From Octopus vulgaris (lineage: Eukaryota), in contig OX597814.1 of assembly GCA_951406725.2 (NCBI GenBank), positions 162,564,001 to 162,628,000 of the forward strand: a stretch of 64,000 nucleotides of DNA, read 5' to 3'. The notes under the pieces are model-generated. The model was not told the DNA's origin. It saw only the letters and a program-made list of their open reading frames with translations, and made no database searches. The translations under genes were made by a program, and so were the position numbers. Below are positions 48,993-64,000 of the stretch, one piece after another; position 1 is the stretch's first letter; every line of letters begins with the position of its first letter.

Positions 48993-49748
48993 CTATGTAT
49001 ATTTCCTATTTAGTATTGGGGAGGTTTCATTTATAAGGATGTACTGCCGTATTTGTCTGAGTGTTGGGTCTTTTGGGTGCTTGGATAAGATGCGGATGTC
49101 AAGTTGGCCCAAGTTGCTTTCATGGTGGTCTTTGGCATGTTGATAGAGTATGGAGGACTGTTTTTTGTCGTTATATTGTCTAAGATGTTCATTTAGTTGT
49201 TCCGCAATGCTCCTAGATGTGTCCCCTATGTATGTCATGTTCATGTCTTTACAAGCACCTTCTGTGCACCTTATGCTGTAAACTACATTTCGAGTGCTAC
49301 AATTAATGCCAGGGCTAATCCTACATACCATGCAGTTATCATTGGTGCATATGGTATTCTCAAAGGGGTACGTTCTACATAGTTGTGATCTGACGGAGTT
49401 CCCTGGCTTGTCAACAATCTTAATGTTAAGTTTGGTCTCCTTTAGAAGTTTTCTAAATCTACGGGCTAGTTCCCCATGGGCTGTGGCCTCTACAAACATC
49501 ACTCCTTGATATTTGTCGGTTTTATACCACGTGTTCGCCCTGTTTGCTTTGTCACAAGTTCTTTGTATCCTATTCCATTCTTTGTTTCTATATCTAGGGC
49601 AGGTACCACTGATATCATTATGTATAATGTTGTCTAATTTCTTTCTAGCCCCAACCCCTACCCCTGTATACTCGAACCCTATCTTTCTGATCATATCCAG
49701 AGAACTGCATGTGGTGCATGAAGTTCTGTATATGGTTTTTCGTTTCAA
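48993..49748 (-). pseudogene. Penelope-like C-terminal fragment: RT thumb/linker, Cys-rich linker and GIY-YIG endonuclease
   Basis: VMFVEAT..GELA, C..C..C..C linker, NVVYSIRC..TYIGDTSRS..LNEH, LYQHAKDHH. Confidence 0.85.
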
Positions 49749-49814
49749 AGGGTGAGTGCGTTAGATTATAAAGCAAAGAAGAAAATGACTCTCCCCAGAC
49801 ACAACAGAATATTG

Positions 49815-55944: not shown

Positions 55945-56400
55945 CCTTTTCAAGCGTAGCCAGGCTCATGGGCCCGATTTCCCGGTTTCTGTGGCGTATG
56001 TGTTCCCCCCAGCTAGACGGGACGCCAGTGCATCAGAGGGTTACTCAAGAAAGAGGAGAGAGTGAGAGAAATTTGTGGCGAAAGAGTACAACAGGGGTCG
56101 CTACCACCCCCTGCCAGAATCTCGTGGAGCCTTTAGTTGTTTTCGCTCAATAAACACACACAACGCCCGATCTGGGAATCGAAACCGCGATCCTCCGACT
56201 GCGAGTCCGCTGCCCAAAACACTGGGTCATTGCGCCTCCACTAATAAATAAATGCACCCGTTTAAAGCCTAGCCAGGCTCATGGGCCCGGTTTCCCGGTT
56301 TCAATGCCGTATGTGTTCTCCAGCTAGAACGTCGCCGGTGCAGGAATCGAAACCTCAATCTTACGAACATGATACTGACACCCTAAACACTAAGCCTCCA
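55945..56400 (-). mobile_element. Two adjacent tRNA-derived SINEs sharing a tail
   Basis: agccaggctcatgggccc repeated. Minus-strand heads with ggtttcgattcc B box. Confidence 0.65.
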
Positions 56401-57448: not shown

Positions 57449-58089
57449 GCTTGTTCGAAGGTTATATGGATACAGTTTGTGTATCAAATAGCTAACTTAA
57501 GGCGATAGCCTCATGGAGCTAATAAGCGGACAGCTTTTTTCTTATTTTTATAAGAATGCCATATTAGTATGGCGATAACTATTATTTTCCGGGAACGCTG
57601 CCGCTGTTCTCTTTTAGAGAGACTTAGTTATTTTAATATTTCTATTATTGAAAACAAGTGGATGTATTCCACCGAAACTAGGTAAATAAAACCATCGAAC
57701 AGAGATTGTCGGAAGCGACACCTACTGGCTGGCTACGCTGCATTGAAAAGGGGCAATACTCCGAAACGCGTCTGTAGCTGCCGGTCAAGTAGTGTGGAGC
57801 GACTGACCTCCCTTGTTCGAAGGTTATATGGATACAGTTTGTGTATCAAATAGCTAACTTAAGGCGATAGCCTCATGGAGCTAATAAGCGGACAGCTTTT
57901 TTCTTATTTTTATAAGAATGCCATATTAGTATGGCGATAACTATTATTTTCCGGGAACGCTGCCGCTGTTCTCTTTTAGAGAGACTTAGTTATTTTAATA
58001 TTTCTATTATTGAAAACAAGTGGATGTATTCCACCGAAACTAGGTAAATAAAACCATCGAACAGAGATTGTCGGAAGCGACACCTACTG
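57449..58089 (+). repeat. 362-bp tandem repeat (retrozyme-like), upstream part, ~1.8 units
   Basis: ttgttcgaagg at 57451 and 57813, ggaagcgaca at 57711 and 58073: period 362, copies essentially identical. Starts directly after a TA-rich microsatellite. Confidence 0.95.
57737..57778 (+). ncRNA. Minimal type I hammerhead ribozyme, U3/A8 variant
   Basis: Stem I gctgca/tgtagc, core TTGAAAA, stem II gggg-caata-ctcc, GAAA, palindromic stem III acgcgt, predicted cleavage after GTC at 57772. Confidence 0.85.
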
Positions 58090-58306
58090 ATTTTTCCTTG
58101 GATTACGTCGGATTATTTTACGCTGTAAGCTGTTATGTTAGTTCGTTCTGTTCTGGATTTACACGTACAATTTTTGGAGTATTAACTTGTGAAACAAAGT
58201 AATTTTCGCCCTTCGGGGTAGAAAATTTCTTTTTATATATGAACTTTAATTCAGTGTGGATTTAATTTTTATCTTGTCTCTTGTGACAAGTCACTTGCAT
58301 TTTATT

Positions 58307-59782
58307 ATGGATCTTGACTTAACGTCAAATTCTGATTTTCCCGAGATGGGAGAAGTTATAAAGCAAAAGGATACAAAGGAGAAACAAAGTTTTTCGGAAG
58401 CCGTTGGAGGCAATGTTATAGAACTGGAAGTAACAATGGCGGATCTCTTCAAGTTCAGAAAGTTCATACAAAGGAATGGAGAAGAAACGAGAATAATACC
58501 GCCCCTGACACCTTACAAGCAATCCGTGAGAAGACGGTAATTTATAAGGTATATAATATTAAGGAAAAAAAGATTGCAGATGTAAGAAATGAATTGGTAG
58601 AACGGTGCATGGCACCAATTTGGAACAAGGTTCGCTATGTTGGCCGAGGAGTGAGAAGCGCTACTATTGAAGCGCAATTCGAGTCGGCTAGCATAGCGAA
58701 GGAAATTTCAACTCAAACGTTGAAGAGTGCAGACATCCTGTTGCTGCCCACGTACTTAGGGCGCAGAACAGCTAAGATAACAATAGAGGATATACCAACA
58801 GGTTACGATGTAATGTGGGCAGCAACAGCGGTCGTATTCGACGTAGAAGAGAAATTAAACATTTTAAACATGAGGATGAAAGAGGCAAAATTTTGGAAAG
58901 GTCAGCAGCTTGAAATGATCGTTCAAGCTGACAATGCAACGCTGGAGAGTTTGCCAGACAGGGTCTTCGTGGGGGATGGACACACTGCGCGGGTATCGGT
59001 TGAGGGACGTAGGCCCAGATGTTTCAAATGTGGGCAGAAGGGTCACGTCCGCTCAGAGTGCAAAAAGAAAAAACCCGTTAATGCCCCCATTCAAACCGCT
59101 GTGGAGAACAAAGCAGACATCACAGCAACAACTAAAGAGAATACCCGGAAAAAGCAAAATGAAAGTCAAAAGGAGGAAAAGAAAATGAATGGAAAACAAA
59201 ACGAAAACGAGGTGGAAAATATTTTATCAAATGGAAAAGAACTGGAAGTAATGGAATATACGACTGTAACCAACAAAAGGAAGAAATCCAATACCCCGGA
59301 CTCCCCACCCCAAACAAAAAGAAAAACAAACGCAGAAGAACAACACAAAAAAATTATCCAATCCCACCCCGCTGGCACTACTTTTGTAGGCCAGCATTTC
59401 ATTAAACCCCAGCCCCCAACTTTAAAAGGATTCAAAAAAAACCGATAGGTGCATTGCTTATAACACAAAAAACGAGAGAGTAGTTTGGTACATAAAGGCG
59501 AAACCAAACATAAAATGTTTCAAATCATCGGAAAAAAACCCGGATTGGAGGTATGCGAAGGTTGGAGAGGAGGAATGGAAGGAGAGACTCTTCCAACTAC
59601 ACGTGAGGGACAACCTGATTAAAGATGTCACACAAGAGGTGATAGCTGGAAAATTGAATATTAGCCCGGCAGCCACTCCATCCCAGAGCCCGGTGGCAAC
59701 GCCGATTAAATGCCCAGCAACAACGGAGAGTGTGGGGGAGGCAGGCAGACAAAAGCTGCCATGCTCCCTCTCACAACCGTAA
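58307..59782 (+). CDS. ORF1 (gag-like, CCHC zinc knuckle), interrupted by two apparent frameshifts
   Basis: ATG at 58307 (MDLDLTSNS..). Middle segment (track ORF 58594-59448) contains CFKCGQKGHVRSEC. After the A8 run at ~59434-59441 another frame stays open to TAA 59780-59782, just before ORF2. Confidence 0.75.
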
Positions 59783-59806
59783 GTAACAAACTTTCTTCAT
59801 TCATCG

Positions 59807-62800
59807 ATGATTAAGTTGGGCTGTATAAATGTGCGTGGAATGGGGTCGAAATGGAAACAGGCTTGCTTGCTGGACGACCTCAGGACACACAGAATAGATG
59901 TAGCCATTGTCACCGAGTCCAAGATGAGAGGAACCCAAGCGTTCTCGCATCTTCTCAATGGTTACGAGAAATTTATTTCTCCTAGCCGAGGAGGAAGTGC
60001 AGGCGTGGCAGTCCTTATCAGGAAGAACTTGGACTTACAGGTAAGTACTGTCTTTATGGACCCAGAAGGTAGGCTGGTTGTCCTCGATGTAACTCACGTA
60101 AGTAAGCAGTCCTTCAGGTTGGTAGCTGTTTATGCTCCTAATGAGGGTAGGCAGACTGGTTTTTATCGGAACTTGGAGCACTTTCTAGTGACGTCTAAAA
60201 CGGTAGTATTGGTAGGGGATTTCAACACTATCATCGATGCGCGGATAGATAGTGTGGGCTCGTCTGATAGAAGGGGGAATCCTTGCCTTAAGGGTCTACT
60301 GACGAGCTTTAATCTAGTAGATCGGTTTCGAATGGATGAGCCGAGCATTCCACAGTGGACGTGGAGTAACAATGACGGCTCACGCAGATCGTATATAGAT
60401 AGGGTATTTGTTAAAGAACGAGATAGGAATAGCATTAGCTGTCCACAATTTTGTATTGTGCCTTACACGGATCACAAATTAGTGACGTGTGAGGTACATG
60501 TAGATAAATGCCATAGACAGGGACCCGGATACTGGAAAATGAACAAGTCTATTTTGGCTTGTGAAGCTTTCCGTAACCGGATTATGGAATTAGTCCAGAG
60601 GGCATTATGTGGAACCATCATTAATAATAGATGGTGGATCGCCCTCAAAAGAGCCATCCGTTTGGAGTCCATTAGATTTAGCAACCAGCTAAGTTTAGAT
60701 AGGACTAGAATAGAGGGCGATTTAGTTAAGAACTTAGACGAGGCAATGGGATCTGGCTGTGCATCTAGAGTGTTAGCAGAGAGAACGATCTTGTACCGTC
60801 ACCTCAATGCCAAGCATGAAGGATGTAGAGTCAGAGCTAAGCTACGTGCAGTGAAACGAGAAGGTATTAATGTTGCCGGATGGGCACGTCGTGTGGAGAG
60901 TCAGAAGGGCAAAAAGTCCTCTATTAAGTCTTTAACTGACGAACAGGGACGCAAAATCTATGGACAGGAGGAGATACAGAAGGTCTTTCAACAGCATTTC
61001 GCTCGGTTGTTTGGGGAGGGCGATCCACTCGAGCGAGGGGAGGACTTACAGAACTTCCTAGCTGGTGGGCCTCGGCTCTCGCCAAGCAGAGCGGAACGCT
61101 GTGAAGGACCGATTACTCCCGCGGAGGTAAGAGGGGTTTTGGCTGAATGCGCCCGGGAAAAGTCGCCGGGACTGGATGGTCTGCCCTATGAGTTTTATTG
61201 TTGTATGCCGGACTTGTTCGGGGACATACTGGCAAGCGTCTACGCAAACTGGCAACAGAATGGGAGGATTCCCAGTTCTGTGAGCCGGGGAGTTGTGACG
61301 CTGATCCAGAAAGACCCGAGCAAGGGGGATAATATTAGTAATTATAGGCCCATAACTCTACTTAATGTAGAGTTAAAGATTTTGGCCAAGGTGTTAGCAG
61401 AAAGGTTGAAGGTCGTCATGGAAAAACTTGTCGGAAAGGCACAGACATGTGCAATCCCAGGCAGGTCGATCGAAGATAATCTTCACCTTCTACGCTACAC
61501 TATAGACAGGGTTGGGCAATTAGCCGGCAAAGGAGGGGCATTGGTCCATTTAGACCAAAGTAAAGCATTTGATAGGGTAGATCATCAGTACCTGGCGACG
61601 GTTCTCGAAGCGGCTGGGCTAGGTCCTGACTTTCGCGGGTGGATATCAGCTATGTACAGCGGTATCAAGTCCACAGTCCAGATAAACGGTTACTTAACGG
61701 AACCGTTTTCGATTAAGCGTTCAGTTCGTCAAGGATGTCCCTTGTCCCCTCTCCTGTACGTTTTGGCTCTTGAGCCATTGCTGCGGAAGTTGGAGACGGT
61801 GAGATGCAATCCTAATGAAATCGGATGCGGTAAGTCTGTTTCTGCGTATGCGGATGACGTCACCTTCATCGTGTCCAACGAAGCACAACTAACTCGTGTA
61901 GAAGGTGCTCTCCGAAGATACGAAGCGGTGGCTGGGGCAAAAGTTAACAAGGACAAGTCCACTGGTTTGCGCCTCGGCACCTGGAGGAACAAGCCGATAT
62001 CGTCCAGTGTTGTTGGACACTGGACAGATGGTCCTGTTAAATTGCTTGGAGTTTGGTTTGGTTCAGACTCCCAGACGGAGAAAAATTGGAGCGAGGTAGT
62101 GACCAAGGTAGAAGCCATAGTTCGGGAGTGGTCCGGAAGGCATCTTTCCTTGAAAGGGAGGGCGGAGGTGGTACAGGTGTTTATAGCATCTGTAATCACC
62201 TATCGCCTGACTGTCGTGCCTTGCCCCGATTTGTGGCTAAGCAAGTTGGATCGACTCCTTTTCCGCTTTTTGTGGAAGGGAGGAAAGCCACTTGTAAGGC
62301 GCTCCGTGTGTTGCCAGGAACCACTAAAGGGTGGGCTGGGGATGCCTTGGTTAATGATGCGCAGGCATGCGCTGAGACTGAGACATCTCTGGTTTCACCT
62401 GGAAGGTGATAAGGTGTGGAGTCCGCTGGCAGATAATTTCTTCCCGCAACCGGACTCTATGGAGAGATTTAAACCCGGTTTCATTAAAAGACGGAACCTG
62501 ACTTTATGGCAGAAAGAGTGCCGACAGGCACTCTGGCTGATCCACAAGATAGGCAAAGCCGGCTGCGGGAATACCACCTCGACATTTTATAGAAGGATGG
62601 TAGAGGCAAAAAATGACGACGTCCTAAGAGGGTCTCTGGGGTTCGATGAGGATCAACTATCCGACCTGTTTAAGAAGACTTTCAAGCCGGGGTATTTGGA
62701 CAATTACCAAAAATCCCTGACTTGGCAGTGCTATAGGAATGCTCTACCTGTTCGCGATAAGTTATATAGGCATGGAATGTCAGTGCCACCGACATGTCCA

Positions 62801-63205
62801 AGATGTGGGTTGGACGATGAAACCGTCCAGCACGCTTTTGTACATTGTCAGGAGCTGTCAGGCTTAATAAGTTACGTAGAACACGTGTTGTCGCATCTGG
62901 GACGAGTACAGCTATCGGCTGGTTCTATAATAAAGATGATACCGCCAGCTGGACTCTCAAAGGAAGGTGAGGCTTGTTTTCACTGTACGGTGGCAGTACT
63001 GAAAGAGTGTGTGTGGAGAACTAGATTGGAAGGTTTGGTGTCAGGAACCTTTGTCTCTGGATATGGTATGTTAAAATACTTCAGATACCATCTAAAGAGC
63101 AAGATGGATTTAGAGAAGAGGAACCTGACACAGAAAAAGTATGTGAATCGATGGAAGGATGTGATAAAAAAGGTGGGTGTGAGTAACCCTGCTTGGTCAT
63201 CATGA
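59807..63205 (+). CDS. ORF2 polyprotein: apurinic-like endonuclease + reverse transcriptase + C-terminal Cys/His (zf-RVT-like) motif, Tx1-like
   Basis: Uninterrupted 1132 aa. APE motifs INVRG, VYAPN, GDFN, SYIDR, TDH. RT motifs KSPGLDG, NYRPITLLN, DQSKAFDRVDH, VRQGCPLSPLLY, YADD. C-terminal CPRC..ETVQHAFVHC. Confidence 0.96.
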   Translation: MIKLGCINVRGMGSKWKQACLLDDLRTHRIDVAIVTESKMRGTQAFSHLLNGYEKFISPSRGGSAGVAVLIRKNLDLQVSTVFMDPEGRLVVLDVTHVSKQSFRLVAVYAPNEGRQTGFYRNLEHFLVTSKTVVLVGDFNTIIDARIDSVGSSDRRGNPCLKGLLTSFNLVDRFRMDEPSIPQWTWSNNDGSRRSYIDRVFVKERDRNSISCPQFCIVPYTDHKLVTCEVHVDKCHRQGPGYWKMNKSILACEAFRNRIMELVQRALCGTIINNRWWIALKRAIRLESIRFSNQLSLDRTRIEGDLVKNLDEAMGSGCASRVLAERTILYRHLNAKHEGCRVRAKLRAVKREGINVAGWARRVESQKGKKSSIKSLTDEQGRKIYGQEEIQKVFQQHFARLFGEGDPLERGEDLQNFLAGGPRLSPSRAERCEGPITPAEVRGVLAECAREKSPGLDGLPYEFYCCMPDLFGDILASVYANWQQNGRIPSSVSRGVVTLIQKDPSKGDNISNYRPITLLNVELKILAKVLAERLKVVMEKLVGKAQTCAIPGRSIEDNLHLLRYTIDRVGQLAGKGGALVHLDQSKAFDRVDHQYLATVLEAAGLGPDFRGWISAMYSGIKSTVQINGYLTEPFSIKRSVRQGCPLSPLLYVLALEPLLRKLETVRCNPNEIGCGKSVSAYADDVTFIVSNEAQLTRVEGALRRYEAVAGAKVNKDKSTGLRLGTWRNKPISSSVVGHWTDGPVKLLGVWFGSDSQTEKNWSEVVTKVEAIVREWSGRHLSLKGRAEVVQVFIASVITYRLTVVPCPDLWLSKLDRLLFRFLWKGGKPLVRRSVCCQEPLKGGLGMPWLMMRRHALRLRHLWFHLEGDKVWSPLADNFFPQPDSMERFKPGFIKRRNLTLWQKECRQALWLIHKIGKAGCGNTTSTFYRRMVEAKNDDVLRGSLGFDEDQLSDLFKKTFKPGYLDNYQKSLTWQCYRNALPVRDKLYRHGMSVPPTCPRCGLDDETVQHAFVHCQELSGLISYVEHVLSHLGRVQLSAGSIIKMIPPAGLSKEGEACFHCTVAVLKECVWRTRLEGLVSGTFVSGYGMLKYFRYHLKSKMDLEKRNLTQKKYVNRWKDVIKKVGVSNPAWSS

Positions 63206-63442
63206 AGGGAGAAAATAGTCTCTGGGCTCTTAGGCTGTCGGGTAAGAATCCTGACTGTGATATACCTAGCTGGCCAAAATCATTTTTAATTTTTAAAAAA
63301 AAAGGAGAAAAGTAAAGTCTAGTATCATAATCAATAATCAACATATGTAAATATCAAACGAACAACGTAAACTTTTTGTAATTATGTTTTGTATTGTAAT
63401 GTACTATCTCTGTAAGATTTTTATAATCATAATAAAGATTTA

Positions 63443-64000
63443 GGAAGCGACACCTACTGGCTGGCTACGCTGCATTGAAAAGGGGCAATACCCCGAAACG
63501 CGTCTGTAGCTGCCGGTCAAGTAGTGTGGAGCGACTGACCTCCCTTGTTCGAAGGTTATATGGATACAGTTTGTGTATCAAATAGCTAACTTAAGGCGAT
63601 GGCCTCATGGAGCTAATAAGCGAACAGCTTTTTTCTTATTTTTATAAGAATGCCATATTAGTATGGCGATAACTATTAAAAGGGGCAATACTCCGAAACG
63701 CGTCTGTAGCTGCCGGTCAAGTAGTGTGGAGCGACTGACCTCCCTTGTTCGAAGGTTATATGGATACAGTTTGTGTATCAAATAGCTAACTTAAGGCGAT
63801 AGCCTCATGGAGCTAATAAGCGGACAGCTTTTTTCTTATTTTTATAAGAATGCCATATTAGTATGGCGATAACTATTATTTTCCGGGAACGCTGCCGCTG
63901 TTCTCTTTTAGAAGACTTAGTTATTTTAATATTTCTATTATTGAAAACAAGTGGATGTATTCCACCGAAACTAGGTAAATAAAACCATCGAACAGAGATT
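63443..64000 (+). repeat. 362-bp tandem repeat (retrozyme-like), downstream part, runs off the window; includes a 200-bp deleted unit
   Basis: Same unit sequence resumes at the TSD. aggggcaata at 63481 and 63681 (spacing 200, i.e. a 162-bp deletion). Confidence 0.95.
63469..63510 (+). ncRNA. Minimal type I hammerhead ribozyme, U3/A8 variant
   Basis: Same fold with perfect stem II gggg-caata-cccc. Predicted cleavage after 63504. Confidence 0.85.

Follow-up and report, generated by a model that had tools for sequence, protein, structure and literature searches.

A stretch of 64,000 nucleotides of the Octopus vulgaris genome (assembly GCA_951406725.2, contig OX597814.1, positions 162,564,001 to 162,628,000; here called the window) contains towards its end a long interspersed nuclear element (LINE) lying in a tandem array of a 362-bp repeat, with a hammerhead ribozyme on either side. 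This arrangement raises the question of how the RNA of the LINE acquires its ends and whether, as an earlier note on this sequence had proposed, it is released by two ribozyme cuts from a read-through transcript of the array. The LINE is young and targets one exact site of the repeat, a hammerhead retrozyme. On balance, it probably targets the likely start of the retrozyme transcript, which would be of the small nuclear RNA (snRNA) type, and is transcribed from position 58073 by the borrowed promoter to an end shortly past 63442, the doubly cut RNA being a by-product.

Insertion site of the LINE

Retrozyme units are numbered u1-u362, u1 being the first base of the motif that forms the target-site duplication (TSD; 57711, 58073 and 63443 in the window). 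The locus is composed as follows.

57450 to 57710, plus strand: 5'-truncated retrozyme unit (u102-362) after (TA)n, with an A159 haplotype private to the array
57649 to 57668, plus strand: motif like a proximal sequence element (PSE) in the upstream unit, AGTG at 57657, -54 from u1 at 57711; putative promoter for a predicted read-through start
57719 to 57796, plus strand: type I hammerhead of the upstream unit; its U3-A8 core occupies 57743-57749, stem II is GGGG/CUCC with a CAAUA loop, stem III is palindromic, and cleavage is predicted after C17 at 57772
57773 to 58089, plus strand: leader of 317 nt that the array would contribute to the predicted doubly cut RNA
58011 to 58030, plus strand: PSE-like motif directly 5' of the insertion, AGTG at 58019, -54 from 58073, found with a matrix trained on U1/U2 promoters
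58073 to 58089, plus strand: 5' TSD copy, 17 bp, predicted +1 to +17 of the retrozyme transcript
58090 to 63442, plus strand: L1/Tx1-type LINE, 5353 bp, without a poly(A) tail
58308 to 59782, plus strand: open reading frame (ORF) 1, CCHC knuckle
59807 to 63205, plus strand: ORF2, 1132 aa, with APE endonuclease, reverse transcriptase (RT) and zf-RVT; open in the window copy
63371 to 63436, plus strand: predicted poly(A) signal, five UGUA and then AAUAAA at 63431-63436, with cleavage expected inside the TSD at about 63446-63466
63443 to 63459, plus strand: 3' TSD copy, which restores the 5' arm of an extended stem I
63451 to 63528, plus strand: type I hammerhead downstream of the LINE; stem II is GGGG/CCCC, and cleavage is predicted after C17 at 63504
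63443 to 63678, plus strand: foreign trailer, u1-236 (C50, G159, A181), fused to u36 of the resident array
63678 to 64000, plus strand: resident A159 array from u36, with a third, crippled hammerhead (C17 at 63704); it runs about 2.4 kb beyond the window to u238 and (AT)n

The TSD, GGAAGCGACACCTACTG, is exactly 17 bp long at both positions and the array period is 362 bp. The motif GAAACGCGTC ends, at C17, at 57772, 63504 and 63704, and the third motif lacks the 5' strand of stem I and the start of the core (junction at 63678). As the earlier note had described, the TSD restores a hammerhead just 3' of the LINE, which also folds with the 3' untranslated region (UTR) of the LINE attached, a second hammerhead lies in the preceding array unit, and AATAAA is found at 63431. 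The arithmetic given there is likewise correct (57773-63504, or 317+5353+62 = 5732 nt), for an RNA that is itself predicted.

Pfam assigns a CCHC motif to ORF1 and an APE-RT-zinc motif order to ORF2, and the endonuclease matches L1 EN structures. An Argonauta protein is among the best RT relatives, and a clade name is absent on all 120 listed homologues; the element would be an L1/Tx1-type LINE, the 'Tx1' label being based on architecture and target specificity. The 5' UTR is 218 nt. Set against an intact copy, ORF1 in the window is shifted in frame twice, by 1 nt each time, within homopolymer runs at about 58505 and 59438. ORF1 encodes 493-496 aa in 6/15 full copies, and both ORFs are whole in 6/15.

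The 2.8 Gb genome of the animal was surveyed for copies, with 30 LINE loci examined for 3' ends among 40 scored. The 3' end abuts u1 in 20/20 copies of at least 97.9% identity and in 0/10 more distant copies, and no poly(A) tail was seen in the 30 insertions. In all 16 full-length copies the 5' junction lies exactly after u17; an upstream C17 at 316-317 nt is present in only eight of these. Sisters of 92-95% identity are inserted at U1 +1 and carry a U1 +1 to +17 head (L093 ends directly before U1 +1), and one, L098, has this U1 head at an off-target, non-U1 site. Sisters of 83% identity occupy U2 +1 (L205, L206) or the start of units in a second hammerhead retrozyme family. The U1 and U2 insertion sites have no ribozyme. 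In a LINE tree rooted on the U2 copies, the retrozyme-targeting clade (support 96) is nested in U1-type copies, and its endonuclease is identical to that of a U1-head copy at 229/240 residues, with 11-12/240 differing between the two types. Uniform 5' junctions are the mark of upstream target sequence on the RNA in R2 (PMC3774820). Given the 16 exact 5' junctions and the U1-derived head off target, the LINE RNA likely begins in the upstream target sequence and not inside the element.

Array-private variants flank the LINE on both sides at four loci and two truncated LINE copies have ordinary junctions, hence the LINEs entered pre-existing arrays. Co-mobilisation of the LINE with its flanks as a rule was considered and is ruled out by the private variants on both sides and by L191, where a LINE of 99.8% identity lies within an older-type array. 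At C2:73.044-73.069 Mb (L096, L203, L204, L097), five LINE copies form a head-to-tail series in which three intervals consist of nothing but the TSD and the fourth of one unit.

Some further features of the snRNA targets were observed. L098 (C15:21.148-21.156 Mb) lies between two inverted U2 gene copies with promoters, and many U2 copies are dispersed with their promoter, as if U2 units were mobile themselves. The region C18:48.97-49.21 Mb (L093-L095, L149-L169) is a U1 cluster with a stack of truncated sister LINEs.

The retrozyme, its hammerheads and a scar at C17

A retrozyme lacking long terminal repeats (non-LTR) was defined as a tandem unit of 150-450 bp with a type I hammerhead and many dispersed arrays. 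By its sequence, the 362-bp unit is such a retrozyme, with Penelope-like geometry. Exact matches to its core number 1451 genome-wide (control 0), and the monomer is strongly paired (z = -7.3 as a circle). Array arms have 3' ends clustered at u234-240 and u297-301, ahead of (AT)n, in 42/50 cases, inverted arms are present, and none of 53 sampled arms has its 5' end at u1 or u63, as expected for endless templates. In unit size, type I hammerhead, highly paired monomer and dispersed short arrays it resembles animal non-LTR retrozymes (PMC7229834, bioRxiv 10.64898/2026.07.22.740005), from which it differs in its U3-A8 core and its LINE parasite, and the two preferred 3' ends in (AT)n and the inverted arms recall Penelope-like elements (cf. 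PMC11167929). A second hammerhead retrozyme family, with a CCGAUGA or CAAAUGA core and a longer stem III, was observed at L104 6690-6790, L103 5590-5700, L105, L084 and L087.

A hammerhead was accepted on the core C3UGANGA9...GAAA...UH17 or a described variant. The core found here, U3 U4 G5 A6 A7 A8 A9 / G12 A13 A14 A15.1 / U16.1 C17, is the U3-A8 variant (UUGAAAA), with A or C at position 7 according to subfamily; U3-A8 is a natural covariation and active (PMC3088659, PMC4209133). The fold comprises stem I GCUGCA/UGUAGC, a 4-bp stem II with loop CAAUA, GAAA, and GUC at the cut. Stems I and II have pair probabilities of 0.91-1.0 in the upstream and downstream motifs, and equal folding was reached in 0/200 shuffles (z = -4.0). 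Across 13 hand-picked haplotypes, 99.0% of stem cells are paired and three pairs have changed on both sides, as against 23-48% in slid controls; the rows are related, so that this figure is not a probability. An Rfam search gave zero hammerhead matches at the gathering threshold or at E<=10, which is taken as a limit of the models, given that the core is a described variant. Another register of the core, CUGCAUUGA (broken), was the first parse and was dropped at a pair probability of 0.0.

Stem III is a single A-U pair closed by the palindrome CGCG, with a pair probability of 0.0 in the monomer, and so falls short of the stable monomer stem expected of a type I hammerhead. The palindrome permits a dimer-type architecture (ACGCGU duplex, -8.9 kcal/mol). 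As stem III is unpaired in the monomer and self-complementary, cleavage would be dimer-assisted and possibly slow. A dimer is likewise allowed in the motifs of newt and axolotl (PMC7229834). By its core variant and stems I and II, the motif thus classes as a type I hammerhead.

Signs of ribozyme activity were sought at the cleavage nucleotide. Among 23 places with a non-C before u63, nine are internal C17 substitutions, of which eight are C-to-A. This change is found in 0/19 cases at two matched C|TG controls (Fisher p = 3e-6), one control (30/33 hits) including some from other repeats. The C17 changes are spread over several haplotype backgrounds and affect individual units whose array neighbours keep C17. 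In one arm at C4, u59-62 is altered in three of four successive units, each time differently (C-to-A, a 2-nt deletion and C-to-T), with a chance expectation of 2e-4 to 2e-3.

C4:141.882-141.884 Mb (L219 503-1536), L213, L222, L223, L229 and L233-L235: loci of the C17 error hotspot

The simplest reading of this scar would be that reverse transcriptase, going round a circle, stumbles each time it meets the ligation junction. The recurrence of C17-to-A and its mixed presence within single arrays are signs that the RNA is cut and ligated in vivo, and the hammerheads likely do both. The C17 scar and the lack of arm 5' ends at u1 or u63 also lend indirect support to a circular retrozyme RNA. The premise of the earlier note that the hammerheads are active is thus probably right, on the sequence evidence of conserved structure and a C17-specific error spectrum. 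No such DNA-level scar is described in the published accounts of retrozymes consulted. The hotspot would allow ribozyme activity and circle formation to be read from a genome sequence; it is, with the foreign trailer, what the present analysis adds. Arms starting at the cut site u63 were also considered as fossils of linear cut RNA and were dropped (14/23 against 8/14 and 17/30 in controls, p = 0.43), and among four 3' ends matching the cut site none is tailed.

Transcription and 3' end of the LINE

U1 and U2 genes of the octopus have AGT[GC] at -52 to -58. A PSE matrix was trained on their promoters, with 2/17 left out. Its best match in the retrozyme unit lies at -54 from u1 and scores 5.3 bits, a value reached by 4/2000 shuffles at -57 to -52 and by 196/2000 anywhere on the strand. 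The second retrozyme family has a perfect ATCAGTG at -55 from the 3' junction of its 83% sister, and in L106 the motif is at -53 from a guessed start. Close to the -55 expected of a PSE, a motif of this kind thus precedes the insertion point in the first family (-54, weak), in the second (-55) and in U1/U2 (-52 to -58). Newt satellite 2, with an snRNA-type promoter, provides a precedent for a retrozyme (PMC2220036).

At the other end of the LINE, five UGUA are followed by AAUAAA. Five were reached in 0/20000 shuffles, and UGUA elsewhere has a frequency of 0.4 per 100 nt. The pattern is kept in sisters at U1, U2 and the second retrozyme, with 3-4 UGUA each, and suggests that the LINE carries its own functional poly(A) signal, conserved across target types. 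Poly(A) cleavage takes place 10-30 nt downstream of the signal. With this spacing it would fall inside the TSD, where the 5' arm of the hammerhead would be lost and a short target trailer left for priming. Accurate priming by R1Bm needs downstream target sequence on the RNA (PMC7265360).

In the favoured mechanism, the LINE would insert at the predicted retrozyme start and borrow its promoter. A capped LINE RNA would begin at 58073, and its 3' end would form shortly after 63442, probably via the poly(A) signal of the LINE, and cleavage by the hammerhead at 63504 would likely serve as a fallback. This RNA's 17-nt target head and short target trailer would anneal to nicked DNA, which would account for the exact junctions on the 5' and 3' sides. 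Where a promoter lies immediately ahead of the TSD, no 5' ribozyme is needed. The hammerheads would serve the cycle of the retrozyme itself, in which RNA is cut, ligated and reverse-transcribed in a rolling manner by a Penelope-type enzyme. The 5732-nt doubly cut RNA would form only where the upstream unit is complete, transcription starts one unit earlier and the poly(A) signal of the LINE is ignored. As the upstream unit in the window has both a PSE-like motif and a hammerhead, such an RNA is physically possible at this locus; its existence at some level is a real possibility, though we lean slightly against it.

Several observations weigh against the favoured mechanism. The PSE match is weak as compared with 10.5-25.7 bits for the training sites, shuffles reach it somewhere on the strand at the rate given above, and the two excluded training promoters lack the AGT core. 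Transcripts from snRNA promoters may polyadenylate poorly, in which case the hammerhead cut would become the main 3' end. Translation without a cap is possible on RNAs with self-cleaved 5' ends (PMC13725137), so that an uncapped RNA could serve as mRNA. Finally, the first 236 bases 3' of the LINE in the window belong to another haplotype (C50/G159/A181) than the other ten units of the array, and at C14:42.98 Mb the 300 nt of unit sequence that follow a LINE 3' end have a haplotype unlike the rest of that array. Both trailers fit reverse transcription of an RNA in which the LINE is followed by a long trailer, either left uncut at u62 or ligated again, and which extends past the poly(A) window and the cut.

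The window trailer stops at u236, a 3'-end hotspot of the retrozyme, whereas the A159 variant, nearly private to the array (10/21 genome matches), is found in two units upstream and eight downstream of the LINE. At C14, the LINE 3' fragment and u1-300 form one arm of an inverted array, without an upstream unit or TSD and without a variant of the other arm. Duller explanations may apply, namely a later second retrozyme fragment, a truncated insertion with a deletion, arms from two templates (as seen at L210) or mis-assembly, the window array being noisy further downstream. A donor was sought at the five other A181 loci, none of which has the LINE within 1.5 kb.

Among the alternatives, a transcript that starts at 58073 and normally receives its 3' end from the downstream hammerhead fares best. 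This RNA of 5432 nt would carry a cap, a trailer of 62 nt and, at its 3' end, a cyclic phosphate. The well-folded hammerhead restored by the TSD in the LINE context, the cutting in vivo indicated by the C17 scar, the lack of tails and the downstream target required by R1Bm (PMC7265360) all agree with it, and hammerhead retrozymes account for two of the kinds of target. It is nevertheless unlikely, as the ribozyme-free U1 and U2 sisters have the same UGUA/AAUAAA end, three tandem copies at C2 are followed only by the TSD, and stem III needs a partner motif (PMC4209133, PMC7229834).

The foreign trailers suggest a second, ribozyme-dependent route of spread, which we consider rather unlikely. LINE RNAs escaping polyadenylation would behave like oversized retrozymes: both hammerheads would cut, ligation would give a 5.7-kb circle, and Penelope-type machinery would reverse-transcribe it from retrozyme start sites, with the window locus and C14:42.98 Mb as fossils and the C17 scar as a genomic record of RNA ligation.

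That the doubly cut 5732-nt RNA, linear or circular, is the regular mRNA and template of the LINE, like R2 released from ribosomal RNA (rRNA), was the model of the earlier note and is improbable. Two ribozyme cuts do not seem to define the working RNA, given the predicted start at the insertion, the poly(A) signal of the LINE, the lack of the upstream motif in 8/16 full copies and a descent from ribozyme-free U1-type copies, the U1 and U2 sisters being ribozyme-free still. No copy examined carries the 317-nt leader at a non-homologous junction, and no LINE flank starts at the cut site u63. Three of the four tandem spacings at C2 equal the LINE and TSD only, and 7/12 upstream flanks hold more than 379 nt of unit sequence, the maximum for the circle. 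What speaks for the model is its exact geometry, the need for retrozyme arrays to be read through for at least one unit, the circularisation of such ends by RtcB (PMC7229834), the one LINE-unit-LINE spacing at C2 of 5735, and the trailers in the window and at C14. The ligated 63504/57773 junction is identical in sequence to ordinary array DNA, and LINE-unit-LINE exists in the genome at C2, hence a signal in divergent reverse transcription PCR across this junction would be ambiguous.

An ordinary L1-like life, with an internal promoter in the 218-nt 5' UTR, polyadenylation at AATAAA 63431 and irrelevant flanks, would suit the L1-type architecture and the strong poly(A)-signal signature but is very unlikely, since the 16 exact 5' junctions and the U1 head of L098 make a start inside the element, which the earlier note had named as grounds against its model, seem unlikely, none of 30 insertions is tailed, and the same -54 motif precedes every identified target.

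Contigs of guessed RNA status cover the LINE and unit in four runs and show no pile-ups of starts or ends; they may originate from DNA and were not used as evidence. The same applies to a contig that starts 13 nt before the predicted +1 and to another that reaches from the LINE 3' end to u18, each with less than 31 nt on one side.

Related systems and neighbouring sequences

The octopus LINE constitutes a further variant of the target-specific LINE. Tx1-clade elements (Tx1 in Tx1D, Keno at U2 snRNA, Tx1-Mar, Kibi/Koshi) share with it an APE-type ORF2, a CCHC ORF1, a TSD, a single target in a multicopy repeat or other mobile element and tandem insertion around the TSD (PMC4494074, PMC4640811). 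The octopus LINE differs in targeting a hammerhead retrozyme at its predicted start, in having sisters at U1/U2 +1, and in a switch of target with an endonuclease that is about 95% identical. Literature searches found no LINE targeting a retrozyme or hammerhead. The available part of PMC4640811 names only Keno, Utopia and Dada as LINEs of snRNA genes, and that of an octopus repeat annotation (PMC13282606) lists active L1-Tx1 families and leaves ribozymes or targets unmentioned.

Like R2 and R1Bm, the LINE would need the promoter of a host locus, and its exact junctions are likely due to target sequence carried on the RNA (PMC3774820, PMC7265360). R2 is released from an rRNA co-transcript by a hepatitis delta virus (HDV)-like ribozyme (PMC3774820); R2 itself encodes and needs this ribozyme, which cuts within 36 nt of the junction. 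In contrast to such release, with an element-encoded 5' ribozyme at or near the junction in all full copies, the octopus ribozyme is part of the target, would cut at a distance of 317 nt and is missing at U1/U2 targets and half of the loci (present in 8/16 full copies). Penelope-like elements with hammerheads in both pseudo-LTRs (pLTRs) likewise have a kb-sized RT ORF between two dimer-type hammerheads, with a double cut and circle proposed (PMC4209133). Their repeats are their own ends, whereas those of the octopus LINE are an unrelated host element split by the TSD.

The locus would represent three layers of parasitism, by a Penelope-type helper, a retrozyme and a LINE, and the LINE lineage appears to have moved among U2, U1 and two retrozymes with little change in the endonuclease. 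It offers a natural test of whether target choice depends on promoter tethering or on the RNA's own ends, a question of interest for programmable all-RNA insertion tools. Should the doubly cut RNA or circle exist, an animal would provide a natural example of a protein-coding circle of 5.7 kb made by ribozymes.

Other sequences in and near the window were noted. An open frame of 255 aa (48993-49760, minus strand) gives a weak Pfam match to T5orf172 (E = 0.03), and its motif resembles what we take to be the C-terminal GIY-YIG region of a Penelope-like element. Two short related pieces at 55955-56390 resemble fragments of a short interspersed nuclear element (SINE). About 2.7-4 kb past the window end (L031 3746-5026), two degraded fragments of a related LINE (82-85%) lie in a noisy CT-rich stretch just after the array.

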